A DNA stretch of 64,000 nucleotides from Chloroflexota bacterium (GTDB taxonomy: Bacteria > Chloroflexota > Limnocylindria > P2-11E): the NCBI GenBank assembly GCA_016194865.1, contig JACQAT010000001.1, positions 9,457 to 73,456 of the forward strand. Direction: 5' to 3'. The translations under genes and the position numbers were made by a program. Positions 4,106 to 30,223 of the stretch are shown here, piece after piece (the stretch's first letter is position 1; the number at the start of each line of letters is the position of its first letter). The notes beneath the pieces were generated by a model that saw only the letters and a list, made by a program, of their open reading frames with translations, did no database searches and was not told where the DNA came from.

Positions 4106-5104
4106 ATGCAGCTCGCACAGCTCGAGGCCTTGTTGCAAGCGGCGCGGCTCGGCAGCGTCAGCCGCGCGGCGGACGCGCTGTTCGTCAGTCAGCCCGCGTT
4201 GACGGCGCGCCTCAATGCGCTCGAGGAGGAGCTCGGCTCGGTCCTCCTGGTGCGCGGCCGTCGTGGTGCCCGGCTCACGGATGCGGGACGCGCCTTCCTG
4301 CCCTACGCCGCTCGAGCCGTGGAGACGGCGGACGAGGGACGAGCGCTCGTCGCGCGGCTCGAGCGTGGCGAGAGCGGTGAGCTCGCGATCGGCGCGGCGC
4401 CCGCGATCTCCGCCTACGCGCTGCCGCCCGCGCTCCGTGATCTGCAGAAGCGCTTCCCCGATCTCCGCCTGTCGGTGCGCAGCGGGCATTCCGAGGAGGT
4501 GCTCGGGCTGGTGCTCGCCGATGCCGTACAGGTCGGCCTGACGCGCGCCCTCTTGCACCCGGAGATCGAGAGCATCCCGCTCTACCAGGACGAGCTCGTC
4601 CTCGTCTGCGACTCCCGACATCGCTTCGCGAAGGACGCGCGCATCAGGCCGGCCGCCATCTCCGGCGAGCGGCTGATCATGTTCGACCGCACGTCCAGCT
4701 ATCACGAGCTCACCAGCGCGATGCTCCGCGAAGCGGGAGTCGCGCCCGGTCAGCTGATGGAGCTCGACAACGCTGAGGCCGCGAAGAAGATGGTCGAGGA
4801 GGGCCTTGGGATCGCGTTGCTGCCGCGGACCGCCGTGCTGCGCGAGATCGCGGATCGCTCTCTGCGGGTCGTGAGCGTCATAGGGTTCCCGACGGTCAAG
4901 CGCCAGATCGTCGCGCTGCGCCGTCGCGATTCGGGTGAGCCGCTCAAGCCCCTCGCGGCGCTGCTCGATCTGCTGTCAGACGGCGGTCAGCGCCGTGCTC
5001 AGACGAGCGCGACTGTGACGTCACGCGCGGCGCGAACCGCGCGCGCCAGGCGCACGTCGGTCGTAAGCAGCCGGGCGCCGAGGCGCTCCGCGAGGGCGAC
5101 GTAG
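4106..5104 (+). CDS. LysR family transcriptional regulator
   Basis: The HTH is LGSVSRAADALFVSQPALTARLNALEEELG, followed by a LysR substrate-binding domain. It is divergent from the lyase operon. ATG 4106 was chosen because upstream residues are Ser/Arg-rich junk. The last ~45 codons are Arg-rich and overlap vapC antisense. Confidence 0.85.
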   Translation: MQLAQLEALLQAARLGSVSRAADALFVSQPALTARLNALEEELGSVLLVRGRRGARLTDAGRAFLPYAARAVETADEGRALVARLERGESGELAIGAAPAISAYALPPALRDLQKRFPDLRLSVRSGHSEEVLGLVLADAVQVGLTRALLHPEIESIPLYQDELVLVCDSRHRFAKDARIRPAAISGERLIMFDRTSSYHELTSAMLREAGVAPGQLMELDNAEAAKKMVEEGLGIALLPRTAVLREIADRSLRVVSVIGFPTVKRQIVALRRRDSGEPLKPLAALLDLLSDGGQRRAQTSATVTSRAARTARARRTSVVSSRAPRRSARAT

Positions 5105-5695: not shown

Positions 5696-6928
5696 CTATG
5701 GTTTTGAGAGGGCCGCGAGCTGCTCGTCGCTGAGGAGCCGGTCCGAGGCCTTCGCGGCGTCGAAGATGCGCGCGATCCGCTCGCGCGTCGGCTCGTACCC
5801 GTGCTTCTCGAGCCAGTAGATGGCGTTCGACTCGCCGCTCATCGGTCCGACCTCGATCGTCTGCTCTCGCCCCACGACACTCGCGGGCACGCCGCTGTAC
5901 ACGCGATCCGCGAGGCCCTGGTCACCCTTGCGCAGCGCCTTGATGACCGCGGCCGCGTGCACGCCGGTCCCGGTGCGGAACGCGTCCGCGCCGAGGGCGG
6001 GATAGTTTGGCGGCAGCGCGGCGCCGCAATGCTCCGCGACGAGCGCGGCGTACTCGACGAGCGGCGTGAGGTCCCGGTCGATCAGACCCCACAGCTGGAG
6101 ATTCACGAGCAGCTGATCCATGGACGTGTTCCCGACGCGCTCGCCGATGCCGAGCGCGCAGCCGTGCACCCGGTCCGCGATCGCGGTCGCGGTCAGCGCG
6201 TTGATCGTGCCCAGCCCGCGGTCGTTGTGGCCGTGGTAATCGAGCTTGACGTCGCGACCGCGCACGATCTCGTCGCGCGCGAACGCGAGCACGTTGCGCA
6301 CGCCCTCCGGTGTCGCGTGGCCGACCGTGTCGGAGATGCAGATGCGCGTCGCGCCGGCGCCGATCGCGGTCTCGTTGAGCTTGATGAGCGTCTCCGGGTC
6401 GGCGCGCGTTGTGTCCTCGGTGACGAACATGACCGCGAGACCCGCTCTCACGAGCGTCGCCACCGACTCTTCGACGCTCCGGAGCATCGTGTCGAGCGAC
6501 CAATCCTCCGCGAGACGCCGGATCGGGCTGGAGCCGATGAACGCGCATGCCTCGATCGGCACGCCGGCCTCGACCGAGGCCTCGATCGCGCCCTGTACGT
6601 CCGCCGGATGCGTGCGGATCGCGAGATTCGGCTTGAGCCGTAGCTTCACCGTCTCCTTCGCGAGCGCGACGATCGTCTCGCGCGCCTGCGCCGACGCGCC
6701 GGGCAGGCCGATGTCCGCGCTCTCGATGCCCAGCTGATCCATGAGCTGAAGCAGGCGGATCTTCACCGCGAGTGGCGGGTTGCGGACCGACGGCCCTTGC
6801 AGGCCGTCGCGGAGCGTCTCGTCGTCGAGCTCGACCGCGCGGTAGTTGGCCGTCGACGCGCGGCCGTCGCGGTTCCAGTCGTATATGAGGTCTTCCCGGT
6901 CGCCCCGCTCCTTCGGCATCGGCGTCAT
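5696..6928 (-). CDS. 2-isopropylmalate/homocitrate/citramalate synthase family enzyme (DRE-TIM metallolyase) lacking the LeuA regulatory domain
   Basis: 410 aa. Has LDDETLRDGLQ at the N-terminus, HGHNDRGLG, and the GERVGN motif of the HMGL-like/IPMS family. There is no C-terminal LeuA dimerisation/allosteric domain. Confidence 0.85.
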   Translation of the reverse strand: MTPMPKERGDREDLIYDWNRDGRASTANYRAVELDDETLRDGLQGPSVRNPPLAVKIRLLQLMDQLGIESADIGLPGASAQARETIVALAKETVKLRLKPNLAIRTHPADVQGAIEASVEAGVPIEACAFIGSSPIRRLAEDWSLDTMLRSVEESVATLVRAGLAVMFVTEDTTRADPETLIKLNETAIGAGATRICISDTVGHATPEGVRNVLAFARDEIVRGRDVKLDYHGHNDRGLGTINALTATAIADRVHGCALGIGERVGNTSMDQLLVNLQLWGLIDRDLTPLVEYAALVAEHCGAALPPNYPALGADAFRTGTGVHAAAVIKALRKGDQGLADRVYSGVPASVVGREQTIEVGPMSGESNAIYWLEKHGYEPTRERIARIFDAAKASDRLLSDEQLAALSKP

Positions 6929-10332: not shown

Positions 10333-10364
10333 GCCGAGAGCCTATACTTGGGCTTGGCCAACGG

Positions 10365-10451
10365 CCTGCTAGGGGTGCGCGAAAGCGCTGAGAGGTGGCA
10401 TCGACCACCAACCCTTGAACCTGATCCGGATCATTCCGGCGGAGGAAAGCA
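10365..10451 (+). promoter_or_regulatory. TPP (THI-box) riboswitch
   Basis: CUAGGGGUGC..GCUGAGA..ACCCUUGAACCUGAUCCGGAUCAUUCCGGCGGAGGAA matches the TPP aptamer core almost base for base. UGCU (10367-70) can pair with AGCA (10448-51), forming P1. The SD GGAGGAAAG and ATG 10452 abut the 3' half. A TATACT -10-like hexamer lies at 10343-10348. Confidence 0.9.
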
Positions 10452-11054
10452 ATGGCGACCGCGCCTCCCTCATCCCTCCCTTTCTTCGGAGCGCGTATCT
10501 CGCTGTACCCGATGACCGATCGCTACGTGCCGGTCATCCTCAGCGCGATCGACGGGCTCAAGGACGCCGGCCTCGAGGTCGAGACCGACGAGATCTCGAC
10601 GTTCCTCGGCGGCGACCGCAACGCGATCTGGTCCGCGCTCGAGCGCGTCTTCGCGAGGGCGGCCAGGACGGGCGAGCACGTCGTGATGGCCGCGCTCATC
10701 TCGCACGGCTGCCCCGGCGAGGCCTATTGCGAGCCCGACCCGCTGACCGGCACCGCGCGCGCCGCGACGACCCACGACGGCAAGGGCGTGCCCGCCTCCG
10801 CGCAGTGGTCCCTCTACCCGCTCGGTGCCGGGACGTATATGGACGTCATCTACAGCGAGATCGCGCGCACGAAGCAGAGCGGCGTCTTCAGCGGCGGCGC
10901 GCATTTCGTGTCAAAGCTCGACGGCGACGTCTGCGGTGTCCTCGACGGGGTCCGCGGCGCCTTCGATGACGCCTGCGGCCAGGTATCCCATGTCGTCGCG
11001 CACGTGACCCTCTCAGCAAATAGCCCGACGAAGAAGAAAGGAACCTCGATATGA
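10452..11054 (+). CDS. ykoF: YkoF-like HMP/thiamine-binding protein (tandem ACT-like domains)
   Basis: RISLYPMTD and a second WSLYPLG repeat, plus the C-terminal LSANSPTKKK, closely mirror Bacillus YkoF as I recall it. It is the first gene after the TPP riboswitch. Confidence 0.85.
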   Translation: MATAPPSSLPFFGARISLYPMTDRYVPVILSAIDGLKDAGLEVETDEISTFLGGDRNAIWSALERVFARAARTGEHVVMAALISHGCPGEAYCEPDPLTGTARAATTHDGKGVPASAQWSLYPLGAGTYMDVIYSEIARTKQSGVFSGGAHFVSKLDGDVCGVLDGVRGAFDDACGQVSHVVAHVTLSANSPTKKKGTSI

Positions 11055-12133
11055 GCCTCGCACGCGGGGTCGCCATCGGCGGCGCCCTCATCGCGCTGAT
11101 CGCGTTCTTCCTTCCCTGGATCGCGTACAGCAACGGCCAGTTCAGCGGCGCCGCGATGGCCGGTGCCGTCACCAGCGCCGGCGGACTTCGTGGCTTCGAC
11201 GTCGCGCTGTACCTCGTTCCTGTGCTCGCGCTGGTGGCCGTCGCGTTCGCCTGGCTGAGCCGCATGAGCGCCGACCCGGAGCGCGAGACGCGCCTGCGTC
11301 TGCTCGGCGCGGCGGCCACGGTCGCCGGCCTCGCGGTCGCGCTGCTCTTCCTCGGGAGCGCGTTGCTCGGCGGCGCGCCGGGGATCCAGTTCCAGCCCGC
11401 GCTGGTGCGGACCGACACGTCCGTCACCGCCGCGGTGCCGAAGGCGCTGAACGCCGGGACGCTCGTGGGCGTCGGCGTCGGCATCTATCTGACGATCCTC
11501 GGCTTCCTCGCGTCGACGCTCGGCGCGCTGCTCCAGCGGCCCGCCACACCTGAGGCCGCGGCGCGCGCGGCGTGGCGCACGCAGGACTACGTCATGGTCG
11601 CGGTCCTCGCGGTCGTCTTCGGCGCCATCTACTGGGCCTGGCTGCAGCCCTACCTGTGGGTCGAGGGCATCGCCGCGCAGCCGGGTCAGGAGCTCTTCTT
11701 CGCGGTCTGGTTCACCAGCGGTCTCCTTGGTGGATACATCATCCGCAGACCCGGCGCGGCATTCTTGACGGAGACGCTCACCGGCGCGGCGGAGGTCCTC
11801 ATCGGCGCCCCGGCCGGCCCGGTCCTGGTGATCACGGCGATGATGGAGGCGCTCGGCGCCGAGCTCGTCTTCGCCTCCACGGGCTACAAGCGCTGGGGCT
11901 GGAAGACGATGCTCATCGCGGGCGCGGCCTCGGCGCTCGTCGCGCTTCCCTGGAACTGGTTCCGCCTCGGCTACTTCGCGCTCAACCCCGGCCTGCTCAT
12001 CGCGCTCCTCGCCATCCGGCTCATCGGTGGCGCGCTCGCGGGAGGCGGCGCCAAGTTCCTCGGTGATCTGATCGCCGCGACGGGCTCGCTCAATTACTTC
12101 GCGCTCGGCCGGGAGCGCGTGCGGGAGATCTAG
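11051..12133 (+). CDS. ykoE: YkoE-like ECF transporter S component with a ~170-aa N-terminal 4-TM extension
   Basis: ATGA overlap with ykoF. The C-terminal ~190 aa (WRTQDYVMVAVLAVVFGAIYWAW...) are S-component-like. The N-terminal half is an additional hydrophobic module. Confidence 0.7.
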   Translation: MSLARGVAIGGALIALIAFFLPWIAYSNGQFSGAAMAGAVTSAGGLRGFDVALYLVPVLALVAVAFAWLSRMSADPERETRLRLLGAAATVAGLAVALLFLGSALLGGAPGIQFQPALVRTDTSVTAAVPKALNAGTLVGVGVGIYLTILGFLASTLGALLQRPATPEAAARAAWRTQDYVMVAVLAVVFGAIYWAWLQPYLWVEGIAAQPGQELFFAVWFTSGLLGGYIIRRPGAAFLTETLTGAAEVLIGAPAGPVLVITAMMEALGAELVFASTGYKRWGWKTMLIAGAASALVALPWNWFRLGYFALNPGLLIALLAIRLIGGALAGGGAKFLGDLIAATGSLNYFALGRERVREI

Positions 12134-13749
12134 CGACACTCTTCGCGCGGGCCGACGCGCTCACCGTCCGGCACGTCGGACGGCGCGCGCCGGCCCTGCG
12201 CGAGCTCACGCTCGAGTGGCGCGAGGGGGAGCGCCTGCTGCTGCTCGGGGCATCGGGCAGCGGCAAGAGCACGCTGGCGCTGTGTTTGGATGGCGTCATC
12301 CCACATGCGCTCGACGCGCACTGGGACGGCGGATCGCTCGTCGTCGCGGGGCGCGAGACGCGCTCCGCGAGCCTCGCCGACCTGACGCGCCAGGTCGCCG
12401 TCCTCTTCCAGGACCCGGAAACGCAGCTCGCGATGCTCGAGGTCGACGACGAGGTTGCCTTCGGCCTCGAGAACCACGGCGTCGATCGCGCCGAAATGCG
12501 CCGCCGCGTCGCCAGCGCGAAGGCGCGCCTCGGCCTCGAGGGCGAGCGCGTCCCGCGACGGCTCGATCAGCTCTCCGGCGGGATGAAGCAGCGCGTGACC
12601 CTCGCCTCGCTCCTCGCGCTCGAACCGCGTGGGCTCGTGCTCGACGAGCCGACGGCGAATCTCGACGGCGACGGCGCGCGCGCCGTGCTGGACGCGATCG
12701 CCGAGCTCGCCCGAGATCGGTCGCGCTCGCTGCTGCTCATCGAGCATCGCCTCGACGACGTGCTGGCGCTCATCGATCGCGTCGCGGTGCTCGGCGACGA
12801 CGGCTCGCTTGCGCTCGGCGGCACAGCGGAGGAGGTCTTCGTCGCCGGCCAGGACCGGCTCGACGAGCTCGGCGTGTGGATCCCGCAGTTGCGCCTGCTC
12901 GCTCGCGCGCTCGGCAGCGATGCGCTCCCGCGAAGCCCCGCGGAAGCGGCGCGGATCGTGGTCGAGCGCTGGCCGGCACATCGCTCCGTCCCTCCGGCCG
13001 ACCCGTCGCCCGGCGCGCCCGCGATCGTCGCGCGCGGCGTCTCGTATCGCTACGGACGCGGCGCTCCCTGGGCGGTCGACGGTGTCGGCCTCGCCGTCGC
13101 GTCCGGCGAGTTCGTCGCGCTGGTGGGAGCGAACGGCTCCGGGAAGAGCACGCTCGGCCTGCTGCTGGCGGGCGCGCTGCGAGCGGCTCGCGGGACCATC
13201 GACTCCACCGCGCGGGTCGGCTATGTCTTCCAGTATCCCGAGCACCAGCTCGTGACCACGACGGTCGCCGGCGAGTTCCGGGTCACCGGCGCCCCGGAGG
13301 AGCGTGTGGCGGCCCTCCTGGCGCGTATCGGTCTGGCCGCGCTCGCCGAGGCGAATCCGTTCACCCTCAGCCACGGGCAGAAGCGGCGCCTCTCCGTCGC
13401 GACGGCCCTCGCGATCGATCCGGACGTGCTCATCCTCGACGAGCCCACCTTCGGCCAGGATCGCCGCCACAGCGAGGAGCTGCTCGCGATGCTCGAGGAG
13501 CTGCACCGCGAGGGCCGTGCGGTGGTCGTGATCACGCATGACCTTCCGCTCGTGGCCGATCACGCGGAGCGCGTCATCGAGCTGCGCGACGGGCGGGTCG
13601 TCTTCGACGGTCCGGCGCAGCGGTACTTCGAGCCGGCCGAGCGGGGCAGGCCACCGGTCGCCGAGGCGTTCCGGATCGCGCGGCTCGAGCGCGCGGACGT
13701 GCCGCCGCTCCTCGGGCTGCGCGCGGTGCAGCGGGCGCTTGGCCGATGA
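12133..13749 (+). CDS. ykoD: YkoD-like duplicated ECF/ABC ATPase (two nucleotide-binding domains)
   Basis: Two Walker A sites (GASGSGKST, GANGSGKST) and two signature/Walker B sets (LSGGMKQRV..LVLDEPT and LSHGQKRRL..LILDEPT). The homologous N-terminus LFARADALTVRH starts near 12139, but no ATG/GTG/TTG exists upstream of TTG 12286, so the start coordinate is unresolved. Confidence 0.75.
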   Translation, partial: ATLFARADALTVRHVGRRAPALRELTLEWREGERLLLLGASGSGKSTLALCLDGVIPHALDAHWDGGSLVVAGRETRSASLADLTRQVAVLFQDPETQLAMLEVDDEVAFGLENHGVDRAEMRRRVASAKARLGLEGERVPRRLDQLSGGMKQRVTLASLLALEPRGLVLDEPTANLDGDGARAVLDAIAELARDRSRSLLLIEHRLDDVLALIDRVAVLGDDGSLALGGTAEEVFVAGQDRLDELGVWIPQLRLLARALGSDALPRSPAEAARIVVERWPAHRSVPPADPSPGAPAIVARGVSYRYGRGAPWAVDGVGLAVASGEFVALVGANGSGKSTLGLLLAGALRAARGTIDSTARVGYVFQYPEHQLVTTTVAGEFRVTGAPEERVAALLARIGLAALAEANPFTLSHGQKRRLSVATALAIDPDVLILDEPTFGQDRRHSEELLAMLEELHREGRAVVVITHDLPLVADHAERVIELRDGRVVFDGPAQRYFEPAERGRPPVAEAFRIARLERADVPPLLGLRAVQRALGR

Positions 13750-14516
13750 GCGTGCCCTATCTCCTCCGTCGCAACCCGACCGCGAAGCTCGCCGTCACGA
13801 TCGCGCTCTCGCTGCTGCTCGTGCTCGTCATCGATCCCTACACGCCGCTGTTGTTCATCGCCTTCGCGCTCCTCGCGGGCGTCGCGCTCGGCGGGATCGG
13901 CGTCCGCACCTATGCGCGCGCGATCGTGCCGCTCGGCATCGTCGCGTTGGGCTTCGTGTGGAGCAACGCGGCCTTCGCGACGCCCGCGCCAGGTGACACG
14001 GTGCCCGCGGCCTGGGGACCGGTGCGCATCAGCGCGTCGGGCCTGCTGTTCGGCATCGGCATCGCCCTACGCGGTCTCGCGATCGGCATCGTGTCCGTCA
14101 CGTTCATCCGGAGCACCGATCCGACCGACCTCGTGGTCTCGCTCGTGCGCGACGCGCGCGTGCCCTATCGGATCGCGTACGCGATGCTCGCGGCGTACCG
14201 CTTCCTGCCCTTCGTGGCGCAGGAGTACGAGCAGATCCGGCTCGCGCAGCGCGTGCGCGGCCTGCCGCGCACGCGGCCGCTCGCCGGGATCATCGCGCTG
14301 TTCTCCACCGCGCTCCGCCGCGCGACGCGGATCGCCGTCGCGATGGACGCGCGTGGCTTCGCGTCTGCGACGCGGCGCACGTTCTACCGCGACGTGCCCA
14401 GCGTGAGCTCAGACGTGCCATTCGCGATCGTGTCGCTCCTCGTGGCGCTCGCGGTCATCGCCCTCAGCGCGGCGGCGGGCTGGCTACGACTCTGGGACGG
14501 TCGCTTCTCGGCCTAG
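13746..14516 (+). CDS. ykoC: ECF transporter transmembrane (T) component, CbiQ/EcfT family
   Basis: ATGA overlap with the ATPase gene. 256 aa, multi-TM. Has the ARG-containing coupling helices (RVPYRIAYAML.., AVAMDARGF) typical of EcfT. Confidence 0.8.
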   Translation: MSVPYLLRRNPTAKLAVTIALSLLLVLVIDPYTPLLFIAFALLAGVALGGIGVRTYARAIVPLGIVALGFVWSNAAFATPAPGDTVPAAWGPVRISASGLLFGIGIALRGLAIGIVSVTFIRSTDPTDLVVSLVRDARVPYRIAYAMLAAYRFLPFVAQEYEQIRLAQRVRGLPRTRPLAGIIALFSTALRRATRIAVAMDARGFASATRRTFYRDVPSVSSDVPFAIVSLLVALAVIALSAAAGWLRLWDGRFSA

Positions 14517-15680: not shown

Positions 15681-15780
15681 TGCACTGCCTCCACCGAACA
15701 TGATGTTTGGTAGAGGCCATCAGCCCGCCGACGGAGCGGCGCGGCGGTTTGGGCGAGCCTCATCGCCAGTAGGAACGAGT

Positions 15781-18113: not shown

Positions 18114-18181
18114 AGGTGGTCACAGCACCGCTTCGCGCTGCCGTGACCGTCCTGCTCCTGCGCCTACGGCTACGTAGTAGC
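18114..18181. repeat. 68-nt two-hairpin intergenic repeat, copy A
   Basis: 61 of 68 positions are identical to the reverse complement of 47813..47880 by hand alignment. Hairpin 1 is GGTCACAGCA/TGCCGTGACC (18118-18148). Hairpin 2 is CTACG/CGTAG (18164-18177). Confidence 0.8.
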
Positions 18182-18189
18182 GTGGCCAC

Positions 18190-18696
18190 GTGGCTCCAAA
18201 GGCGTCGTCTTTCGTCGGACCCGGCGCGCTCGATGTCTCATTCGAGGTCAACGGCCACCCTGCCACCGTCCACATCCCGCCGCACCGCACGCTCCTCGAC
18301 ACGCTGCGCGAGACGCTCGGCCTGACGGGCGCGAAGAAGGTCTGCGACGAGGGGACCTGCGGCGCGTGCACCGTGCTCGTCGACGGGAAGGCCGTGTACT
18401 CGTGCATGACGCTCGCGATCGCGTGCGAAGGCCGTTCCGTCGAGACGGTCGAGGGCCTGGCGCGCGACGGCCAGCTCCACCCGGTGCAGCAGGCGTTCAT
18501 CGACCACGACGCGTTCCAGTGCGGGTTCTGCACACCGGGTCAGCTCATGTCGATCGCCGCGCTGCTGCGCTCGAACGGCGCGCCGAGCGAGGAGGACGTG
18601 ACCCGCGCGGTCACGGGCAACCTCTGCCGCTGTGGCGCCTATCCCAACATCGTCGCGGCCGGCGTGGCCGCCGCGCGCAAGGCGGGCAGGGCATGA
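18190..18696 (+). CDS. (2Fe-2S)-binding small subunit of a xanthine dehydrogenase-family molybdoenzyme
   Basis: Cluster motifs CDEGTCGACTV and CGFCTPG...CRCGAY. ATGA overlap with the large subunit gene. Confidence 0.9.
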   Translation: MAPKASSFVGPGALDVSFEVNGHPATVHIPPHRTLLDTLRETLGLTGAKKVCDEGTCGACTVLVDGKAVYSCMTLAIACEGRSVETVEGLARDGQLHPVQQAFIDHDAFQCGFCTPGQLMSIAALLRSNGAPSEEDVTRAVTGNLCRCGAYPNIVAAGVAAARKAGRA

Positions 18697-20981
18697 CGCG
18701 CGTGATCCGCACGCGGGTCGAGTTCGAGGGCAACATCAGCGAGGAGCTCGCGGTCATCCAGGGCAGCGACCTCACGCGCTGGGGCCCTGGCCACGAGCTG
18801 TCCAGCGTCGGCAAGCCGGTCGCGCGCGCCGATGGCGCGGCCCGGGTCACCGGCGGCGCGAAGTACACGCAGGATCTCTTCCTCCCCGGGATGCTGCACG
18901 CGCGCATCCTGCGCAGCCCGTATCCGCGCGCTCGCGTCCGCCGCGTCGACGCCAGCCGCGCGCTGCGGCTGCCCGGCGTCCGTGCCGTGCTCCACCGCTT
19001 CAACGCGCCGAGGGCGGCGTTCCGCGGCGAGGAGACCATCTTCCGCGAAGAGGTGCGCTTCGTCGGCGACGAGGTCGCCGCGGTCGCGGCCGAGACCGCG
19101 GAGATCGCCGCGGAGGCGCTGCGGCTCATCGAGGTCGAGTACGAGGTGCTGCCGTTCGTCGTCGATCTCGAGGAGGCGATCCGCGAGGGCGCGCCGCGTC
19201 TTGAGGAGAAGGGCAACGTCAGCGAGAGCGGCACGCACAAGCGTGGCGACAGCGCGAAGGCGCTCAAGGAGTCGAAGATCGTCGTCGACGCGGCGTACCG
19301 CACGTCGACGCAGCTGCACAACAGCCTCGAGACGCACGGCGCCGTCGCGTCCTGGGACGGCGATCGCCTCACCGTGTGGGAGTCGACGCAGCACGTGTTC
19401 GGTGTCCGGCAGGGTCTGCACCTCGCGCTGCGGATCCCCATGACGAAGATCCGTGTCGTGTGCGACTTCATGGGCGGCGGCTTCGGCTCGAAGGGCGGCG
19501 TCGGCAAGTACACGATCGTCGCCGCGCTGTTCACGCGCCAGCTCGGAGCACCGGTGCGCTGCGTGCTGTCGCGCGAGGAGGAGAACCTCGCCGCCGGCAA
19601 TCGCTCGGCGACGCTCCAGCACCTGCGCCTCGGCTGGAAGGACGGACGGGTGCATGGTGCCGAGCACCACTCGTGGTCGAACTCGGGCCAGGGCCGCTGG
19701 GTCGCCGACCCGACCGGCCCGACCGACACGCTCTACGACTTCACGAACGTGACATCGAAGTCGTACCGCGTCGTCACGAACACCGGCGCGCTCGCCTCGT
19801 TCCGCGCGCCGGGCTACGTCGAGGGCACGTTCGCGCTCGAGTCAGCGCTCGACGAGCTCGCGCAGCGCGTCGCGATCGATCCGCTGACGCTGCGCACGCG
19901 TCATCTCGTGACGGGGAAGGACCCGAAGACCGGGATGAGGTACTCGTTCAAGCGGCTCGCCGAGTGCTACGAGATCGGCGCGCGCGAGATCGGGTGGGAC
20001 AAGCGCAAGGACGGCGGCGTCCGCGGCTCGACGCCGCAGCGGCGGCGCGGCATCGGCATGGCGTCGCAGATCTGGGGCGGCGGCGGCGGTCCACCCGCGT
20101 ACGCGACGGTGCACATCAATCCGGATGGCACCGCGCTGCTGCGCACCGGCACGCAGGACATCGGTACGGGCACGCGGACCGTCATGGCGCAGATCTGCGC
20201 GGAGGAGCTCCGACTCGACGTCGACGCGGTGCGCGTCGAGCTCGGCGACACCGACGGTCCCTACGGGCCGATCTCCGCGGGCTCGCTCACGCTCGCGTCC
20301 GTCGGGCCCGCGGTGCGGCTCGCCGCCGCCGACGCACGCACGCAGCTCGTCGCGCTGGCCGCCGGCATCCTCGAGGTGCCTGCCAAGGAGCTGCGGCTGG
20401 AGCGCGGCCAGGTGATCTCCAGCGGTGCGAAGACGCCGCTCCGCGAGGTCCTCAAGCAGGTGGAGAACTTCACCGTGATCGGGAAGGGGAGCCGCTTCCC
20501 GAACCCGCAGGAGACCGCCCTCAAGACCTTCGGCGCGCACTTCGTCAGCGTCGAGGTCGACCTCCGGACCGGCGAGATCATCCCGCTCCACGTCGTCGCC
20601 GTGCACGACGTCGGCCGCATCGTGAATCCGCGCACCGCCGCCTCGCAGGTCGAGGGCGGCGTGATCCAGGCGCTCGGCTTCGCCCTCACCGAGGAGCGGG
20701 TGCTCGATCTCCCGACCGGACGCGTCCTCACCGCGGACCTGGAGAGCTACAAGGTCCCGACGGTGCGCGACGTCCCCAGGATCACCGTGCGCTTCGTCGA
20801 TCAGCCCGACCGCGTCGCGAACAATCTCGGCGCGAAGGGGCTCGGCGAGCCGCCGATCATCCCCACGGCGGCCGCGCTCGCGAACGCGGTCGCGAACGCG
20901 ACGGGCGTCCGCGTGCGCACCGCGCCGCTCACGCCGGCGCGCGTGCTCGAGGCCATCGCGCTCGCGAGCGCGCAGCGATGA
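18693..20981 (+). CDS. molybdopterin-binding large subunit, xanthine dehydrogenase/aldehyde oxidase family
   Basis: 762 aa from ATG 18693. Motifs VTGGAKYTQD, GGGFGSKG and GLGEPPIIP are characteristic of the family. Confidence 0.9.
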   Translation: MTRVIRTRVEFEGNISEELAVIQGSDLTRWGPGHELSSVGKPVARADGAARVTGGAKYTQDLFLPGMLHARILRSPYPRARVRRVDASRALRLPGVRAVLHRFNAPRAAFRGEETIFREEVRFVGDEVAAVAAETAEIAAEALRLIEVEYEVLPFVVDLEEAIREGAPRLEEKGNVSESGTHKRGDSAKALKESKIVVDAAYRTSTQLHNSLETHGAVASWDGDRLTVWESTQHVFGVRQGLHLALRIPMTKIRVVCDFMGGGFGSKGGVGKYTIVAALFTRQLGAPVRCVLSREEENLAAGNRSATLQHLRLGWKDGRVHGAEHHSWSNSGQGRWVADPTGPTDTLYDFTNVTSKSYRVVTNTGALASFRAPGYVEGTFALESALDELAQRVAIDPLTLRTRHLVTGKDPKTGMRYSFKRLAECYEIGAREIGWDKRKDGGVRGSTPQRRRGIGMASQIWGGGGGPPAYATVHINPDGTALLRTGTQDIGTGTRTVMAQICAEELRLDVDAVRVELGDTDGPYGPISAGSLTLASVGPAVRLAAADARTQLVALAAGILEVPAKELRLERGQVISSGAKTPLREVLKQVENFTVIGKGSRFPNPQETALKTFGAHFVSVEVDLRTGEIIPLHVVAVHDVGRIVNPRTAASQVEGGVIQALGFALTEERVLDLPTGRVLTADLESYKVPTVRDVPRITVRFVDQPDRVANNLGAKGLGEPPIIPTAAALANAVANATGVRVRTAPLTPARVLEAIALASAQR

Positions 20982-24550: not shown

Positions 24551-25165
24551 TCAACGTCGGCCGGATTCCTTCGCCGGCGGCCAGCCGCCCTCGGGGACGT
24601 CGTCGCCGCGCTCGATCGCCAGCAGCCGCCGCTTCGCGTCGAGGCCACCCGCGTAGCCACCCAGGCTGCCGTGCGTCGCGACGACGCGGTGGCAGGGGAC
24701 CACGATGGGGATCGGGTTCGCGCCGAGCGCGGCGCCCGTCGCGCGTGACGCGCGCTCGTTGCCGGCGCGCTTCGCGATCACGGCGTAGGTGGTGAGGTCG
24801 CCGAAGCCGACCTTCGCGGTGGCGCGGAGCACGCGCTGCTGGAACGGCGTGAGCCCGCTCAGATCGACGGGGACGTCGAACGTGCGGCGCTTGCCGCGGA
24901 AGTACTGATCGAGCTCGCGCGCCACGGGCGACGTCCGCTTCGCGTCGGGCACCAGACCGGGCCCATAGGTCCGGAGCAGCCGCCTCAGCTCGCGCGCGTC
25001 CGGCTCGTCGCCGTAGTGGATGGTGGTGATGCCCCGCGGCCCGACGCCGACCCACAGCGCGCCGAGCGGCGAGTCGATGACGCCGTAGCCGACGCGCACG
25101 AGATCCTCAGCGGCCGCGCGCGTGATGAGCGCCGCGCGCGCCTCGTCCACAAGCTGCTCGATCAC
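24551..25165 (-). CDS. ogt: methylated-DNA--protein-cysteine methyltransferase (O6-alkylguanine alkyltransferase)
   Basis: Active site IVVPCHRVV. Also TPFQQRVLRA and NPIPIVVP. GTG 25165 overlaps the sigma factor stop (GTGA). Confidence 0.9.
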   Translation of the reverse strand: MIEQLVDEARAALITRAAAEDLVRVGYGVIDSPLGALWVGVGPRGITTIHYGDEPDARELRRLLRTYGPGLVPDAKRTSPVARELDQYFRGKRRTFDVPVDLSGLTPFQQRVLRATAKVGFGDLTTYAVIAKRAGNERASRATGAALGANPIPIVVPCHRVVATHGSLGGYAGGLDAKRRLLAIERGDDVPEGGWPPAKESGRR

Positions 25166-25629
25166 CGCATCGCCTCCTTGACCTTCTTCGTCGCTTCCGA
25201 CACGCGCGCCCGCGCCGCCACTTCCGTGATCTCGAGCGCCGACGCCACGTCGCCGTACGGCAGCCCCTGCACCCGCCGCAGCACGAACGCGGCGCGCTGG
25301 CCCGCGGGAAGGACGCGGATCGCGCCGACGAGATCCAGGAGCGACACGCCGTCGCCCTGCGGCGCCGCGAGACGCAGGTCCTCGAGGCTCACGATGCGCC
25401 GGCGCTTGCGGCCGTGGTCGATCGCCTTGTTCGTCGCGATGCGATAGAGCCAGGCGCGCTCGTTGTCCCTCCGTGGCGGCGGCCAGGAGCGGAACGCCGC
25501 GAGGAAGGTGTCCTGGAAGACGTCGTCGGCGTCGTGCCGCGTGCCGGTCAGGCGCAGCGCGTAGCGGTACAGCTCGAGCTCGTGCCGCTCCAGGAGCTCG
25601 CCGAACGAGAGCGCGGGCTGCATCGTCAC
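25162..25629 (-). CDS. ECF-type sigma-70 family RNA polymerase sigma factor
   Basis: 155 aa. Region 2 is DADDVFQDTFLAAF..AWLYRIATNKAID. Region 4 is LPAGQRAAFVLRRVQGLPYGDVASAL. Confidence 0.9.
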   Translation of the reverse strand: MTMQPALSFGELLERHELELYRYALRLTGTRHDADDVFQDTFLAAFRSWPPPRRDNERAWLYRIATNKAIDHGRKRRRIVSLEDLRLAAPQGDGVSLLDLVGAIRVLPAGQRAAFVLRRVQGLPYGDVASALEITEVAARARVSEATKKVKEAMR

Positions 25630-25677
25630 CTGACACTAGAACGCTCAAGGCTGGCCCTTTGTGAGACAGTCGCCGCA

Positions 25678-26715
25678 ATGATCCTGCGGTCGCTCCTGCC
25701 GTCACCCGACGACCTCGCATCGGCCACGGGCTGGCGGGTCGAGCCGCGCGGCGTGTGCCAGGGCGATGTCTGCGTCCCGCTGCGCCCCCGTACCGACGGG
25801 CTCGTCGACGTCGCCGCGCTCGCCGCGGCGCTGGGCGCGGCGATCGTGGAGGAGCCGGAGGCGGGCGTGTGGGCGCTCGGTCCCGGATCGGGCGGGCGCG
25901 CGCTGCTCAGCGCGAATGCACCGGAGCTCGCGCTGCCCGACCTGGCCGGCACCGCGTTCCACCTGTCGTCGCTCCTCGGCGCGAAGGTGCTCCTGGTCGC
26001 CTGGGCATCGTGGTGAGGCTGCCGCAATGACCTGCCCGTGTGGCAGGAGCTGCGCGAGGAGCTGAGACCGCGGGGCCTCGAGATCGTGACCGTCGCGCTC
26101 GATAGCGACCGCGAGAGCGCGCGGCCCTGGATCGAGAAGGCGGCGCCGCGGCATCCCTCGCTCATCGACACCGAGCATCGCTGCGACGAGCTCTTCGGGA
26201 TCGTCAACGTGCCGAGCGGCGTGTGGATCGACGAGCGCGGCACCATCGTCCGCCCGCCGGAGACGGCGTACCCGAAACGGCCCGCGTTCCTCGATCGCGT
26301 CGTTCCTCCCGACGCGACGCCACGGCAGCGCGAGCAGATCGAGGCGAACCGCGCGCTGCGCGTCGACGCCGAGGGCTACGTGGCGGCGCTGCGCGACTGG
26401 GCCGCGCGTGGCGCGGAGAGCCGCTTCGCGCTCGACTCCGCCGAGGTCGTGCGGCGCAGCCGCCCGCGGCCCATGAACGAGAGCGAAGCGGCGGCGCACT
26501 TCGCGCTCGGCCGGTACCTCCACGATGCCGGTCCGCGCGACCGCGCTGTCGCGCATTTCCGTGAGGCGCAGCGGCTCCAGCCGGACAACTGGACGTACAG
26601 GCGTCAGGCGTGGGCGCTCGCGGGCGACGATCGCGATCGGCTCTACGGGACGGACTGGCTCAGTGAAGTGAAGAAGATCGGGGCGGAGAACTACTACCCG
26701 GCGCTGGAGCTCTGA
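25678..26715 (+). CDS. ResA/TlpA-like thioredoxin-fold protein with in-frame UGA (candidate selenocysteine) at 26014..26016
   Basis: ORFs 25414..26016 and 26038..26715 share one frame. Read-through gives LLVAWASW-U-GCRNDLPVWQELREEL.. with the UGA at the first redox-Cys position. The downstream part keeps coding-like G/C third positions. A SECIS-like hairpin follows. Confidence 0.6.
26024..26053 (+). promoter_or_regulatory. SECIS-like stem-loop downstream of UGA 26014
   Basis: The upper stem CCUGCC/GGCAGG (26031-36 / 26042-47) carries apical loop CGUGU. The lower GCA/UGC pairs are at 26024-26 / 26051-53. The upper stem begins 15 nt after the UGA. Confidence 0.45.
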
Positions 26716-27803
26716 TGGCCGACGATCCTCAGTTGTTCTGGATCGGGCGCAACCCGTCGGGAGGGACCAGGTTGCCGTACCTCCTGCGGCTGCCGGTCTC
26801 CGGTGAGGGCCGGATCTTCCTCGCCACCCGGGATACGTGGCCGCGCGGAACCGATGTCTTCTGCCTCCAGGTCTCCGAATGGCCCGCCGAGGCCGAGATC
26901 GTGGAGCAGATCCCGGTCGAATCATGCTGGCGCGCGGGCGCCGCGATCCATCTCGTGCTGCGGCGCCCCCGCCAGCGCAGGTCTCTCTTCGTCTGGACCA
27001 GGAAGGGTGACCGCACCCTGGTGTTCTGGCGCTCGAACGCTTCCATGCGCCGGGCGCGACCCGGGATCAGGGTCCCGCTTGCGCGCGCCTTCGATGAGCG
27101 GCTCCTCGTGGCGGTCGACATCGGCGAGCGGTACCCATGGCGCTTCGCATTCCGTGACGTCGGGACCGAGCGCCGGCGCCTGCCGGTCGGCGACTACGCG
27201 CTCATCGAGAACGATCAGGTCGTCGCGGCGGTCGAGCGCAAGACGCCGCACGACCTCGCGACATCGTCGGTCGATGGCCACCTGCGGCTCGCGCTCGCCG
27301 AGCTGTCGGGGCTCCCGCACGCGGCCCTCGTGGTGGAGGGCCGACTCAGCGACGCGATCAAGGCCGCTGGTGAAGGACGCGTACGCCCGGGCTGGCTGCT
27401 CAACGTCGTCGCCGCGCTCCAGATCGAGTTCCCGTCCGTCACCTGGATGTTCGCGGAGACCCGGCAGCTTGCCGAGGATTGGGCGTACCGCTGGCTGGGT
27501 GCCGCGGCGCGCTTCCGGCGGCCCCGCGCGCTCCCACTGCTCGATGAGCGCGCGTTCGGGGAGGCGCCGATCTCGTATGCGGCCGGCACGCGTGTCCTGG
27601 ATGCGACGGCACGGCGGACGTTGCTCTTGCGCGAGGCCGAGTCCGGTACCGAGTGGACGAGTCGCACGGCGGCGGCGCGCTGTGGGGTGACGCAGGTGAC
27701 CGCGGCGTCGGACCTTCGCGCCCTCGTTGCCGCGAACGGACTCGAGCCGCTCGGCCGGGGTCGGGCACGGCGTTACCGCTCGATCTCGCCGCCGCAGGCC
27801 TGA
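26715..27803 (+). CDS. ERCC4 (XPF/Mus81-type) nuclease-domain protein with unknown N-terminal domain and C-terminal HTH-like tail
   Basis: TGATG overlap with the upstream gene. The central VAVDIGERY...GDYALIE...VERKTPHDL matches the GDxn-ERKxxxD ERCC4 signature. Residues 1-115 matched no family I know. The C-terminus (WTSRTAAARCGVTQVTAASDLRAL) looks HTH-like. Confidence 0.7.
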   Translation: MADDPQLFWIGRNPSGGTRLPYLLRLPVSGEGRIFLATRDTWPRGTDVFCLQVSEWPAEAEIVEQIPVESCWRAGAAIHLVLRRPRQRRSLFVWTRKGDRTLVFWRSNASMRRARPGIRVPLARAFDERLLVAVDIGERYPWRFAFRDVGTERRRLPVGDYALIENDQVVAAVERKTPHDLATSSVDGHLRLALAELSGLPHAALVVEGRLSDAIKAAGEGRVRPGWLLNVVAALQIEFPSVTWMFAETRQLAEDWAYRWLGAAARFRRPRALPLLDERAFGEAPISYAAGTRVLDATARRTLLLREAESGTEWTSRTAAARCGVTQVTAASDLRALVAANGLEPLGRGRARRYRSISPPQA

Positions 27804-28542: not shown

Positions 28543-29661
28543 TCAGTCCGCGCCTCGCGTGACCGCCTTTTCGTAGACGTCGTCCGCCAGACGCAGCGCG
28601 CGGCCGTTCCCGCCGTAGCGCTCCTTCGTGATCTCGGCGAGGATCGCGAGCGCGATCTCCTCGGGCGTGCGTCCGCCGAGGTCCAGACCGATCGGCGCGT
28701 GGACCGCGCGGATCCGCTCGTCCGGTACGCCCTCGTCCCGCAGCATGCGGTCGATGAGGATCGTCTTCCGCTTGCTGCCGAGCAGGCCGACGTAGCGCGC
28801 CTCGGTCTTCACCGCGGCGCGCAGGCACGACGCGTCCAGCTTGTGGCCGCGCGTCGCGATGACGATGAACGTGTTCCAGCCGATCGGGAGCGTCTCGAGC
28901 GCCGTGACCATGTCGAGGTTCAGCGCCTCGATCGGGGCGGGGAAGCGCGCGCGGTCCGCGAACTCGGCGCGGTCGTCGACGACCGAGACGTCGAGTCCGA
29001 GCATGACGCCCATCGTCGCGAGCGCGTGACCGACGTGACCGCCGCCGACGACGAGCAGGCGCGGCTTCGCCAGCACCGGCTCGACGAGCAGATCGTGCGT
29101 GTCGTCGAGCGGGACCGTGCGCGCGGTGCCTTCGCGCAGCGCCTCGGCCGCGAGCACGCGCGTCCGCTGATCGAGCGCCGCGCTCCCCAGCGTGCCGCCA
29201 CTGTGACCGTCGTGCTCGAGGTAGAGACGGCCGGCGGGCGCGAGGTCCTTGCCTCGCTTCTCGAGGAGCGACGCGAGCGCGACGGGCCGTCCGCCTGACG
29301 ACGCCGCGAGGACGTCTCCGAGCAGATCCCGCCCGCCGACCTGGAGCGCGCTCTCGCCCGGCTCGATCGCGATCCACATCGTGCCGCCGCAGACGAGGCC
29401 GGTGTCCCAGGCGAGATCCTCGGTGAGCTCGTACTCGCGTAGGGAGACCTGGCCGTTCGCCATGACGACCTTCGCTTCCGCGAACGCGTCGCCCTCGACG
29501 CAGCCGCCCCCGAGCGTGCCGACGGTGCGGCCGAGATCGTCGACGACGAGCTTCGCGCCGACGACCTGCGGGGTCGAGCCGCTCGTGCGCACCACGGTCG
29601 CCACCGCGAAGCGGCGACCCTCGCGCTCGAGCTCGGCCATGCGCGCGTAGATCTCACGCAT
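28543..29661 (-). CDS. XdhC/CoxI family molybdoenzyme maturation protein
   Basis: The N-terminal XdhC_CoxI block is FAVATVVRTSGSTPQVVGAKLVV...GGGCVE. The C-terminal Rossmann-like block is LLVVGGGHVGHALA. Confidence 0.85.
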   Translation of the reverse strand: MREIYARMAELEREGRRFAVATVVRTSGSTPQVVGAKLVVDDLGRTVGTLGGGCVEGDAFAEAKVVMANGQVSLREYELTEDLAWDTGLVCGGTMWIAIEPGESALQVGGRDLLGDVLAASSGGRPVALASLLEKRGKDLAPAGRLYLEHDGHSGGTLGSAALDQRTRVLAAEALREGTARTVPLDDTHDLLVEPVLAKPRLLVVGGGHVGHALATMGVMLGLDVSVVDDRAEFADRARFPAPIEALNLDMVTALETLPIGWNTFIVIATRGHKLDASCLRAAVKTEARYVGLLGSKRKTILIDRMLRDEGVPDERIRAVHAPIGLDLGGRTPEEIALAILAEITKERYGGNGRALRLADDVYEKAVTRGAD

Positions 29662-30223
29662 CGAGGTCGGCCCTCACGTCGACGTCCCGGACCACTCCGC
29701 GATCGTCCACATCCACATCCACACGCTCATTTTGATGCTTCTTGATCACCACGTGAAGGTTGGCCACGGGATCGGTCGCCGCGATCTCGTCTCTGAGCGT
29801 GGCCGGGAGCACGACCGGGTGCCCGCGCTTGCCGTTGAAGCGGGGCGACACGATCTTCCCGGGCGAGAACACGGCCAGCACCGCCGCTACCGTTTCTGGT
29901 CGCAGGAAGGGCATGTCGCCGGGGAGGACGACGATCGCGTCGCCGTCGACCTGCGCGACGCCGCACTGGATCGAGGAGAACATGCCGCGCGACGGGTCGG
30001 GGTTCTCGATCGCCCGGACGCGCGGGTCGAGGAACGCGTTCACGTCCTTCTCGAGCTCGGTCGCGCCCTTCGGGACGACGACGAGCACCTCGTCGACGCC
30101 GCCGTCGAGCAGCGAGGCGATGGTGCGGTCGAGGAGCGGCTGGCCGTCGATGGGCTCGAGGAGCTTGCGTCCGCCGAACCGCTCGGCGGAGCCGGCGGCC
30201 GGCACCACGCCGACGGAGCGCAT
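29654..30223 (-). CDS. MobA/MocA-like molybdenum cofactor nucleotidyltransferase
   Basis: 189 aa. Has the VVPAAGSAERFGGRKLL NTP-transferase loop and VVLPGDMPF. Its ATG shares one base with the stop of the FAD subunit gene (TGATG). Confidence 0.75.
   Translation of the reverse strand: MRSVGVVPAAGSAERFGGRKLLEPIDGQPLLDRTIASLLDGGVDEVLVVVPKGATELEKDVNAFLDPRVRAIENPDPSRGMFSSIQCGVAQVDGDAIVVLPGDMPFLRPETVAAVLAVFSPGKIVSPRFNGKRGHPVVLPATLRDEIAATDPVANLHVVIKKHQNERVDVDVDDRGVVRDVDVRADLDA

Follow-up and report, generated by a model that had tools for sequence, protein, structure and literature searches.

A predicted selenocysteine-containing ResA-like protein encoded across an in-frame UGA in a Chloroflexota bacterium

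The subject of this analysis is a gene in a stretch of 64,000 nucleotides of DNA from a Chloroflexota bacterium (contig JACQAT010000001.1), referred to here as the window. Positions 25678-26715 of its forward strand very likely form one selenoprotein gene of 345 residues, in which an in-frame UGA at 26014-26016 serves as the codon for selenocysteine (Sec). The predicted residue, U113, aligns with the nucleophilic first cysteine of the thioredoxin-fold active site, and a hairpin of the type that directs Sec insertion in bacteria follows the UGA. The assignment of the gene to the family NF041054 rests on the translation, on a hidden Markov model (HMM) match and on tblastn matches that run across the TGA from residue 1 to 345. 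It adds one more, fairly divergent copy to a family that is already curated and published, i.e., the finding is correct but not new.

Reading frame, family and the conserved UGA

Two open reading frames (ORFs) share the same frame in this region. The first, 25414-26016, ends with the TGA at 26014-26016, and the second extends from 26038 to 26715. The frame from the ATG at 25678 through the stop at 26713-26715 comprises 346 codons with a single internal stop, flanked by GAKVLLVAWASW on the upstream side (ending in LLVAWASW) and by GCRNDLPVWQELREEL on the downstream side, and read-through of this stop yields the product of 345 residues. Judged from the alignment of homologs, ATG 25678 is the true start, because it is placed by the consensus N-terminus M-I-L...T-G-W, in which I2 and T17 are at least 90% conserved and G18 and W19 are invariant.

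The G+C content at third codon positions (GC3) is 0.92 upstream of the TGA and 0.91 downstream of it. In a six-frame scan of the window, this is the only in-frame TGA with GC3 above 0.85 on both sides, and at each of the four remaining junctions within one frame, a TAA or TAG stop separates adjacent genes. By heuristic gene calls, 24 of the 51 genes in the window end in TGA. TGA is thus an ordinary stop elsewhere in the window, and therefore the code is the standard one and the recoding is local, with no need for a variant code. Both of these points, the ordinary use of TGA and a coding signal that continues behind the UGA, had been proposed in a first-pass annotation of this DNA, and they agree with the codon statistics and with the frame that stays open in the relatives described below.

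With the UGA entered as Cys for profile searches, the read-through product matches NCBIfam NF041054.1 with 509.3 bits (cutoff 300, E 5.9e-153), and the match spans residues 1-344 and profile positions 1-353 of 354. This model, "WAxxUGC_long", is an equivalog with the product name "ResA-like WAxxUGC motif-containing protein". The first-pass annotation had proposed the same name, and it is the right one. The motif W-A-x-x-U-G-C occurs here as W-A-S-W-(UGA)-G-C at residues 109-115, and it is also found in the relatives. The window copy shares no more than 64% identity with any GTDB species representative that was found.

NCBI and two selenoproteome surveys class the family as a selenoprotein. A full-text literature search for the name "WAxxUGC" returned no papers; the family is listed under other names. 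One survey describes a family "Prx-like (UGC-containing)", assigned to pfam00578 and with the motif UGC, of which 46 Sec and 855 Cys sequences were counted in the GOS metagenomes and which is commoner in non-marine samples (PMC2398784). This family may be the same as NF041054, judged by the common motif, the fold family and the similar name.

The active site can be compared directly with proteins of known structure. Sequence searches of the PDB with phmmer return DsbE-, ResA- and TlpA-like chains (E 7e-12 to 1e-7), and in the HMMER alignments the UGA column falls on the first Cys of their W-C-G-P-C, with a gap of one residue opposite the Pro. The UGA is therefore located where it had been proposed to be, at the first active-site Cys after the conserved Trp, and the U-G-C, which had been described as one residue shorter than CxxC, results from the step from WCGPC to WUGC. 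The shortened motif of three residues is shared by all 101 full-length Cys-form relatives, 98 of which have it as C-G-C.

These relatives come from a comparison with the protein database, covering the best 120 matches, i.e., 101 full-length proteins (344-379 residues) and 19 fragments. When the UGA is aligned with the homologs that contain Cys, as the first-pass annotation had suggested, the UGA column holds a Cys within W-x-x-W-C-G-C in 98 of the 101 full-length proteins. No U residue occurs in any of the 101, even in those that NCBI names "WAxxUGC motif-containing". The 19 nearest matches (69-100% identical) are C-terminal halves of 225-232 residues, one of them being the window's own half (P0001). 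Their starts are almost uniform, as 18 begin with M/V-WQELR and the remaining one has its start four residues further upstream, with MDLPVWQELR. From these start points, the fragments are best read as the signature of gene callers that halt at the TGA and restart downstream.

It could be argued from the same products, 225-232 residues long and starting at M/V-WQELR or just upstream, that there are two genes here, one for a protein of 112 residues ending at the TGA and one for a protein of 225 residues from the GTG that does exist at 26038. However, such a split cuts the thioredoxin fold inside its active-site motif, between W-A-S-W and G-C. The 21 nt from the TGA to the GTG are also conserved in frame and encode the invariant G-C-R-x-D-L-P. 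Homologs present as two separate genes had been named in advance as a finding that would speak against a selenoprotein; instead, the 101 homologs are single proteins of 344-379 residues. Among all the explanations considered, two genes is the least probable, with hardly any chance of being right. Standard gene callers split such genes at the UGA, and the databases hold many C-terminal fragments of 225-232 residues as a result of this. The correct product would be one selenoprotein of 345 residues, and the NCBI pipeline has a model for it in NF041054.

At the nucleotide level, one genome per GTDB species was scanned, and 80 loci were found with tblastn matches spanning residues 1-345. Exactly at the codon of U113, 77 of the 80 loci have TGA and three have TGC. 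The motif among the 77 is W-x-x-W-TGA-G-C in 75 cases and W-A-S-Y-TGA-G-C in two, and the same TGA is also present in a metagenome contig (L001). The carriers belong to Chloroflexota (Thermomicrobiales, Chloroflexia, Dehalococcoidia and Ktedonobacteria), to Actinomycetota (Rubrobacter, Solirubrobacterales and Acidimicrobiia), to Dormiibacterota, and to Binataceae or "Deltaproteobacteria" metagenome-assembled genomes (MAGs). The nearest relatives of the window gene are MAGs of Thermomicrobiales and Chloroflexia, which makes a high-G+C member of Chloroflexota the probable source. All Sec-form relatives found are MAGs; the Cys form occurs in the named isolates among the homologs, namely Frankia sp. 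QA3, Frankia tisae and Patulibacter minatonensis. In every copy the frame after the TGA is open for 210-293 codons, and the 232 codons downstream of the TGA in the window encode protein that is 55-64% identical to its closest relatives.

These data bear on the simplest objection, that the TGA is a true stop, either in a nonsense pseudogene or through a sequencing or assembly error for TGC or TGT. A single base change from TGC or TGT would be enough, and most full-length homologs do carry Cys. However, the same TGA recurs in 77 of 80 genomes that come from different species and were assembled independently, as well as in the metagenome contig, and the 232 downstream codons retain both their GC3 of 0.91 and their similarity to the closest relatives. 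An RNA hairpin specific to the Sec forms is also conserved behind it. The conserved TGA and the open frame in relatives therefore leave no room for a pseudogene, for an assembly error or for two separate genes. Compared across genomes in this way, the true stop is effectively refuted, and we give it only a very slight chance.

In some of the genomes the family is present as clustered paralogs. An Ilumatobacteraceae MAG (L051) contains three Sec-form copies, at 6337 and 7427 on the forward strand and at 4395 on the reverse strand, and an Acidimicrobiales MAG (L060) contains two, at 6337 and 7412, both on the forward strand. All of these carry the variant motif W-A-S/P-Y-U-G-C. Frankia tisae (L075) has two Cys-form copies 2.4 kb apart, at 6352 and 8789 on the forward strand.

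A conserved hairpin behind the UGA

The hairpin CCUGCC-CGUGU-GGCAGG, located at 26031-26047 on the forward strand, is of the type of a bacterial selenocysteine insertion sequence (bSECIS), as indicated by RNAalifold, by codon conservation and by its fit to the published consensus. Its stem of 6 bp is formed by 26031-26036 with 26042-26047, and its apical loop is CGUGU at 26037-26041. The distance from the UGA is 14 nt to the hairpin and 20 nt to the loop.

We aligned the 60 nt from the TGA onwards in the 77 Sec-form genes, and the alignment is gap-free. The only helix found by RNAalifold pairs columns 18-23 with 29-34 and corresponds to the stem seen in the window. Within this helix 98.9% of the cells are paired, and shifting the 3' strand by 1-3 columns lowers this figure to 26-69%. 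Covariation is seen at the closing pair (C-G 64, U-A 6, G-C 1, U-G 2), and the sequence CUGCC-CG(U/G)GU-GGCAG is near-invariant over several phyla. The energy of the hairpin is -9.3 kcal/mol alone and -10.4 kcal/mol in context.

According to the published bSECIS consensus, the loop has 3-9 nt, the stem 4-16 bp and a G at loop position 1 or 2 (PMC13188914), the distance from the UGA to the loop is 16-37 nt, and the minimum free energy (MFE) is at most -7.5 kcal/mol (PMC13188914, Fig. 2 legend). The hairpin lies within all of these ranges, with a loop of 5 nt, a stem of 6 bp, a spacing of 20 nt and an MFE of -9.3 to -10.4 kcal/mol; the conserved loop G is at position 2 and is followed by U or G. 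The stem-loop that the first-pass annotation had seen behind the UGA is thus retained, both by its fit to the consensus and by its presence in the 77 Sec-form genes. The outer GCA/UGC pairs that had been added to it (26024-26026 with 26051-26053) had to be dropped. They exist in the window, but they are not conserved; 63.5% of the cells are paired, and one of the pairs forms in just 9 of 76 sequences. A lower helix of 4 bp, taken from the single-sequence MFE fold, was rejected, as it is not conserved either.

The codons of the hairpin arms tell more than the covariation does. In the Sec forms, the arm codons are Leu CTG in 75 of 77 genes, Pro CCC in 74 of 77 and Gln CAG in 76 of 77, and neighbouring Leu and Pro codons vary freely among synonyms. 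A survey of 130 conserved degenerate codon columns in 74 Sec-form genes places these same three codons at the bottom of the whole gene, with normalised codon entropies of 0.00 for Gln CAG, 0.04 for Leu CTG and 0.14 for Pro CCC (median 0.74). The peptide encoded by the hairpin, LP(V/G)WQ, is found in 75 of the 77 Sec forms. At the same place the 101 Cys forms are variable, with LSGWR in 26, LPLWQ in 21, LAGWR in 10, LPVWQ in 8 and other peptides in the rest. Codons that are frozen in the Sec forms, together with a peptide that is free in the Cys forms, therefore show that it is the RNA that is constrained, and only in the genes with a UGA. Selection at the codon level, as read from these alignments, is a stronger argument for the hairpin than covariation. 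It is a clean example of RNA-level selection in a coding sequence, in which the SECIS arms also freeze the peptide LP(V/G)WQ.

Two Cys-form genes contain related hairpins. In the Albidiferax gene L064 (6352-6411), the sequence is UUGCC-ACUAU-GGCAA, where the outermost pair shown has changed from C-G to U-A compared with CUGCC...GGCAG of the Sec forms, and in L059 (1200-1260) the form CUGCC-GCUGU-GGCAG is retained. These hairpins could be relics of a recent conversion from Sec to Cys or a by-product of the codons for L-P-x-W-Q.

Decoding of the UGA

The established bacterial pathway suggests how the gene would be decoded. On reaching the UGA at 26014-26016, the ribosome would meet the hairpin at 26031-26047 acting as the SECIS element. 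This would recruit SelB-GTP together with Sec-tRNA(Sec), and selenocysteine would be inserted with no termination. Thioredoxin-fold chemistry would then make Sec113 the attacking nucleophile. Its resolving partner would be Cys115, the second redox residue of U-G-C (TGC, 26020-26022 on the forward strand), which shows no variation among the aligned proteins and corresponds to the second Cys of CxxC. The redox couple would be formed by the selenolate and a selenenylsulfide of the U-x-C type, in which the spacing is one residue less than in CxxC.

A number of observations weigh against this interpretation. At the RNA level, five of the six stem pairs are near-invariant, so that direct covariation comes from one pair only, and the single-sequence fold of 62 nt is no better than that of shuffled sequences (z = 0.31). 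The hairpin is thus unremarkable as a single sequence, and its weight therefore comes from the comparison with relatives. No SECIS family was found by Rfam in the whole window at gathering thresholds. The covariance-model check around the UGA, which had been proposed together with the candidate, did not come out in its favour, as no SECIS model or other family gave more than chance matches on 25950-26150 at E up to 10. L-P-x-W-Q is also partly palindromic at the codon level, and the Cys forms L059 and L064 are likewise capable of forming a hairpin.

The decoding machinery was not seen near the gene. No tRNA gene, and thus no tRNA-Sec, is present in the 64-kb window, and no tRNA-Sec was found in the flanks of 60 related loci. 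A crude regular-expression search of the window in six frames returned no signature of SelA (SGDKLLGGPQ), SelB (GHVDHGKT) or SelD (GxGCxxK), and a crude motif search returned none in the flanks of all 81 loci. The absence of sel genes from 64 kb says little, because Sec genes need not adjoin their targets. Finally, we found no experimental selenium incorporation for the NF041054 family among the papers that were searched. The gene itself implies, without proving it, that the source organism decodes Sec.

The missing machinery in the window and in the related flanks and the lack of experimental selenium evidence are also what would favour read-through of the UGA without Sec. Trp, Cys or Gly would then be supplied by a near-cognate or suppressor tRNA, and the hairpin would do no more than delay the ribosome or keep the release factor away. 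In other cases of recoding, hairpins that stimulate the event from downstream are known. However, the UGA is located exactly on the column of the redox-active Cys, which is the hallmark of Cys/Sec pairs, and both the loop, with its conserved G in the second position and U or G after it, and the spacing of 20 nt are typical of a SelB-dependent SECIS. The family is also, as stated above, classed as a selenoprotein by NCBI and by two selenoproteome surveys. The carrier lineages, in addition, fall among phyla that have selenoproteins, since Chloroflexi, Actinobacteria and Deltaproteobacteria are all among those reported (PMC1794560). We therefore regard read-through without Sec as improbable, although less so than a true stop, and insertion of Sec at the UGA as the far better explanation.

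Domains, surroundings and comparison with known systems

The predicted selenoprotein consists of three domains. The N-terminal domain (about residues 1-75, 25678-25902 on the forward strand) contains the pair C27-x4-C32, with codons at 25756-25758 and 25771-25773. Both cysteines are at least 90% conserved, and G-x-C-x4-C is present in 79 of 81 Sec-form gene copies. This domain has no Pfam match, and a PDB sequence search with the domain alone returned nothing significant. It is followed by the thioredoxin-fold domain, which is TlpA/ResA/DsbE-like (about residues 76-195, 25903-26262, forward strand) and was identified by Pfam, by phmmer against the PDB and by Foldseek; Pfam AhpC-TSA and Redoxin match residues 80-191. 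The C-terminal domain (about residues 196-345, 26263-26712, forward strand) is helical. It contains a TPR-like repeat at residues 271-304 (26488-26589), with a weak Pfam TPR_2 match over the same residues and PDB TPR matches at about E 1e-5, and the motif P-x-N-W-T-Y-x-R-Q-A-W. Its invariant columns are P302, N304, W305, Y307, R309, A311 and W312.

For the structure, the closest full-length Cys homolog (P0002, 59% identical) was modelled with AlphaFold2 in place of the window protein. The model has a mean predicted local distance difference test score (pLDDT) of 90.7 and a predicted template modelling score (pTM) of 0.90. In this model the N-terminal part folds confidently as a small alpha/beta domain and the C-terminal domain is helical. 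The thioredoxin domain aligns in Foldseek to ResA (1st9) with a target template modelling (TM) score of 0.76 and a root-mean-square deviation of 2.2 A. The N-terminus is not hydrophobic, as the maximal Kyte-Doolittle mean over 19 residues is 0.55 in the first 30 windows. An internal segment, residues 39-57, reaches 1.72, but it contains Asp residues and belongs to the N-terminal domain, which is folded with confidence in the model. The protein is probably cytoplasmic, judged by hydropathy only, from its lack of a hydrophobic N-terminus.

It can be speculated that the protein, with its three domains, is a cytoplasmic selenoenzyme dedicated to a specific substrate and not a generic disulfide reductase. 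The features that point in this direction are the CxxxxC domain, the U-x-C centre and the TPR-like domain with PxNWTYxRQAW. The N-terminal Cys pair might then act as an internal redox relay, and the selenenylsulfide would be strained. We consider this proposal possible but doubtful. If it were true, the near-invariant SECIS in Chloroflexota, Actinomycetota, Dormiibacterota and Binataceae would be due to an unusually strict contact between SelB and the RNA, or else the Sec form would have been transferred horizontally more than once.

No conserved neighbour gene was found, neither by tblastn of the window neighbours nor by all-against-all clustering of the flanking ORFs. The largest genuine cluster of neighbours is present in 11 of about 80 loci; larger clusters of flanking ORFs were discarded, since they are off-frame or antisense shadows of the selenoprotein gene or low-complexity off-frame ORFs. 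Directly downstream in the window is an ORF of 362 residues with an ERCC4 domain (PF02732, E 1.4e-10) at 26713-27803 on the forward strand, whose ATG overlaps the stop TGA at 26713-26715 by one base. This arrangement suggests that the selenoprotein gene and the ERCC4 ORF are co-transcribed, in this genome only, because the pairing with ERCC4 is seen beside no relative. On the other side, divergent genes on the reverse strand encode an extracytoplasmic function (ECF)-type sigma-70 factor (25162-25629) and then an O6-methylguanine-DNA methyltransferase (MGMT, 24551-25150), and 48 nt separate the start codons of the sigma factor and the selenoprotein gene.

Further away, the window contains a molybdopterin-binding large subunit of the xanthine/aldehyde oxidase family (18147-20981, forward strand) and an XdhC-type maturation factor (28543-29673, reverse strand). 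No link was found between the selenoprotein gene and this subunit or factor, which lie at most 10 kb from it. A thiamine pyrophosphate (TPP) riboswitch (RF00059, 62.6 bits) at 10361-10464 on the forward strand precedes a ykoFEDC-like operon that extends to 14516. The operon consists of YkoF (10425-11054), an ABC_cobalt-type permease (11024-12133), a double ABC ATPase (12067-13749) and a CbiQ-type component (13542-14516), and it probably encodes a transporter of thiamine or of one of its precursors under the control of the riboswitch. The reverse strand carries a fluoride riboswitch (RF01734, 42.2 bits) at 15704-15776, directly upstream of a gene of the Na+/H+ exchanger family (PF00999, 14484-15719, reverse strand); this gene is neither crcB nor an eriC-type fluoride exporter.

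Compared with bacterial SECIS elements, for which fdhF of E. coli is the archetype and bSECISearch provides the consensus, the hairpin is alike in being located inside the coding sequence just 3' of the UGA, in its small apical loop with G then U/G, in the spacing of 20 nt and in its stable upper stem. It is unlike them in that no Rfam model matches and in that its primary sequence is unusually strict, whereas bacterial SECIS elements are generally conserved in structure rather than in sequence.

At the protein level there is no essential difference from NF041054, as the HMM match, the motif, the pfam00578/TlpA-type thioredoxin fold and the mixture of Sec and Cys forms are all common to both. 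The relationship to the better known thioredoxin-fold proteins is more distant. ResA of Bacillus subtilis, TlpA of Bradyrhizobium and DsbE/CcmG are extracytoplasmic thiol-disulfide oxidoreductases that function in the maturation of cytochrome c or of copper centres. The window protein shares with ResA, TlpA and DsbE the thioredoxin fold (TM 0.76), the lead-in W-A-x-W-C and sequence similarity at E 1e-9 to 1e-12. However, its active site is U-G-C instead of their C-x-x-C, with Sec replacing the first Cys. Unlike ResA and TlpA, it has no hydrophobic N-terminal signal peptide or membrane anchor that hydropathy detects (maximum 0.55), and it has an additional N-terminal CxxxxC domain of 75 residues and a C-terminal helical, TPR-like domain of 150 residues. 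Membership in these three families was rejected, as the scores are below the cutoffs (ResA 55.1 of 170 bits, TlpA 37.9 of 230, DsbE 28.6 of 123) and a CxxC is absent. In its working the protein would be an oxidoreductase of the TlpA/ResA type that stands outside those families.

A peroxiredoxin of the AhpC/TSA type was also considered and rejected. The P-x-x-x-T/S-x-x-C of these enzymes is absent, and L-L-V-A-W-A-S-W-U-G-C comes without the Pro...Thr lead-in; the Pfam AhpC-TSA match arises because the fold is common to TlpA-like proteins. Among selenoproteins, Zhang et al. (2006) described a "Prx-like thiol:disulfide oxidoreductase" and a "thiol:disulfide interchange protein" (PMC1794560). Like these families, the protein studied here has a thioredoxin fold, carries Sec as the N-terminal one of its redox residues and has many homologs with Cys. 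It differs from them in having U-G-C in place of UxxC or UxxU and in its multi-domain, "long" architecture, which is not described there.

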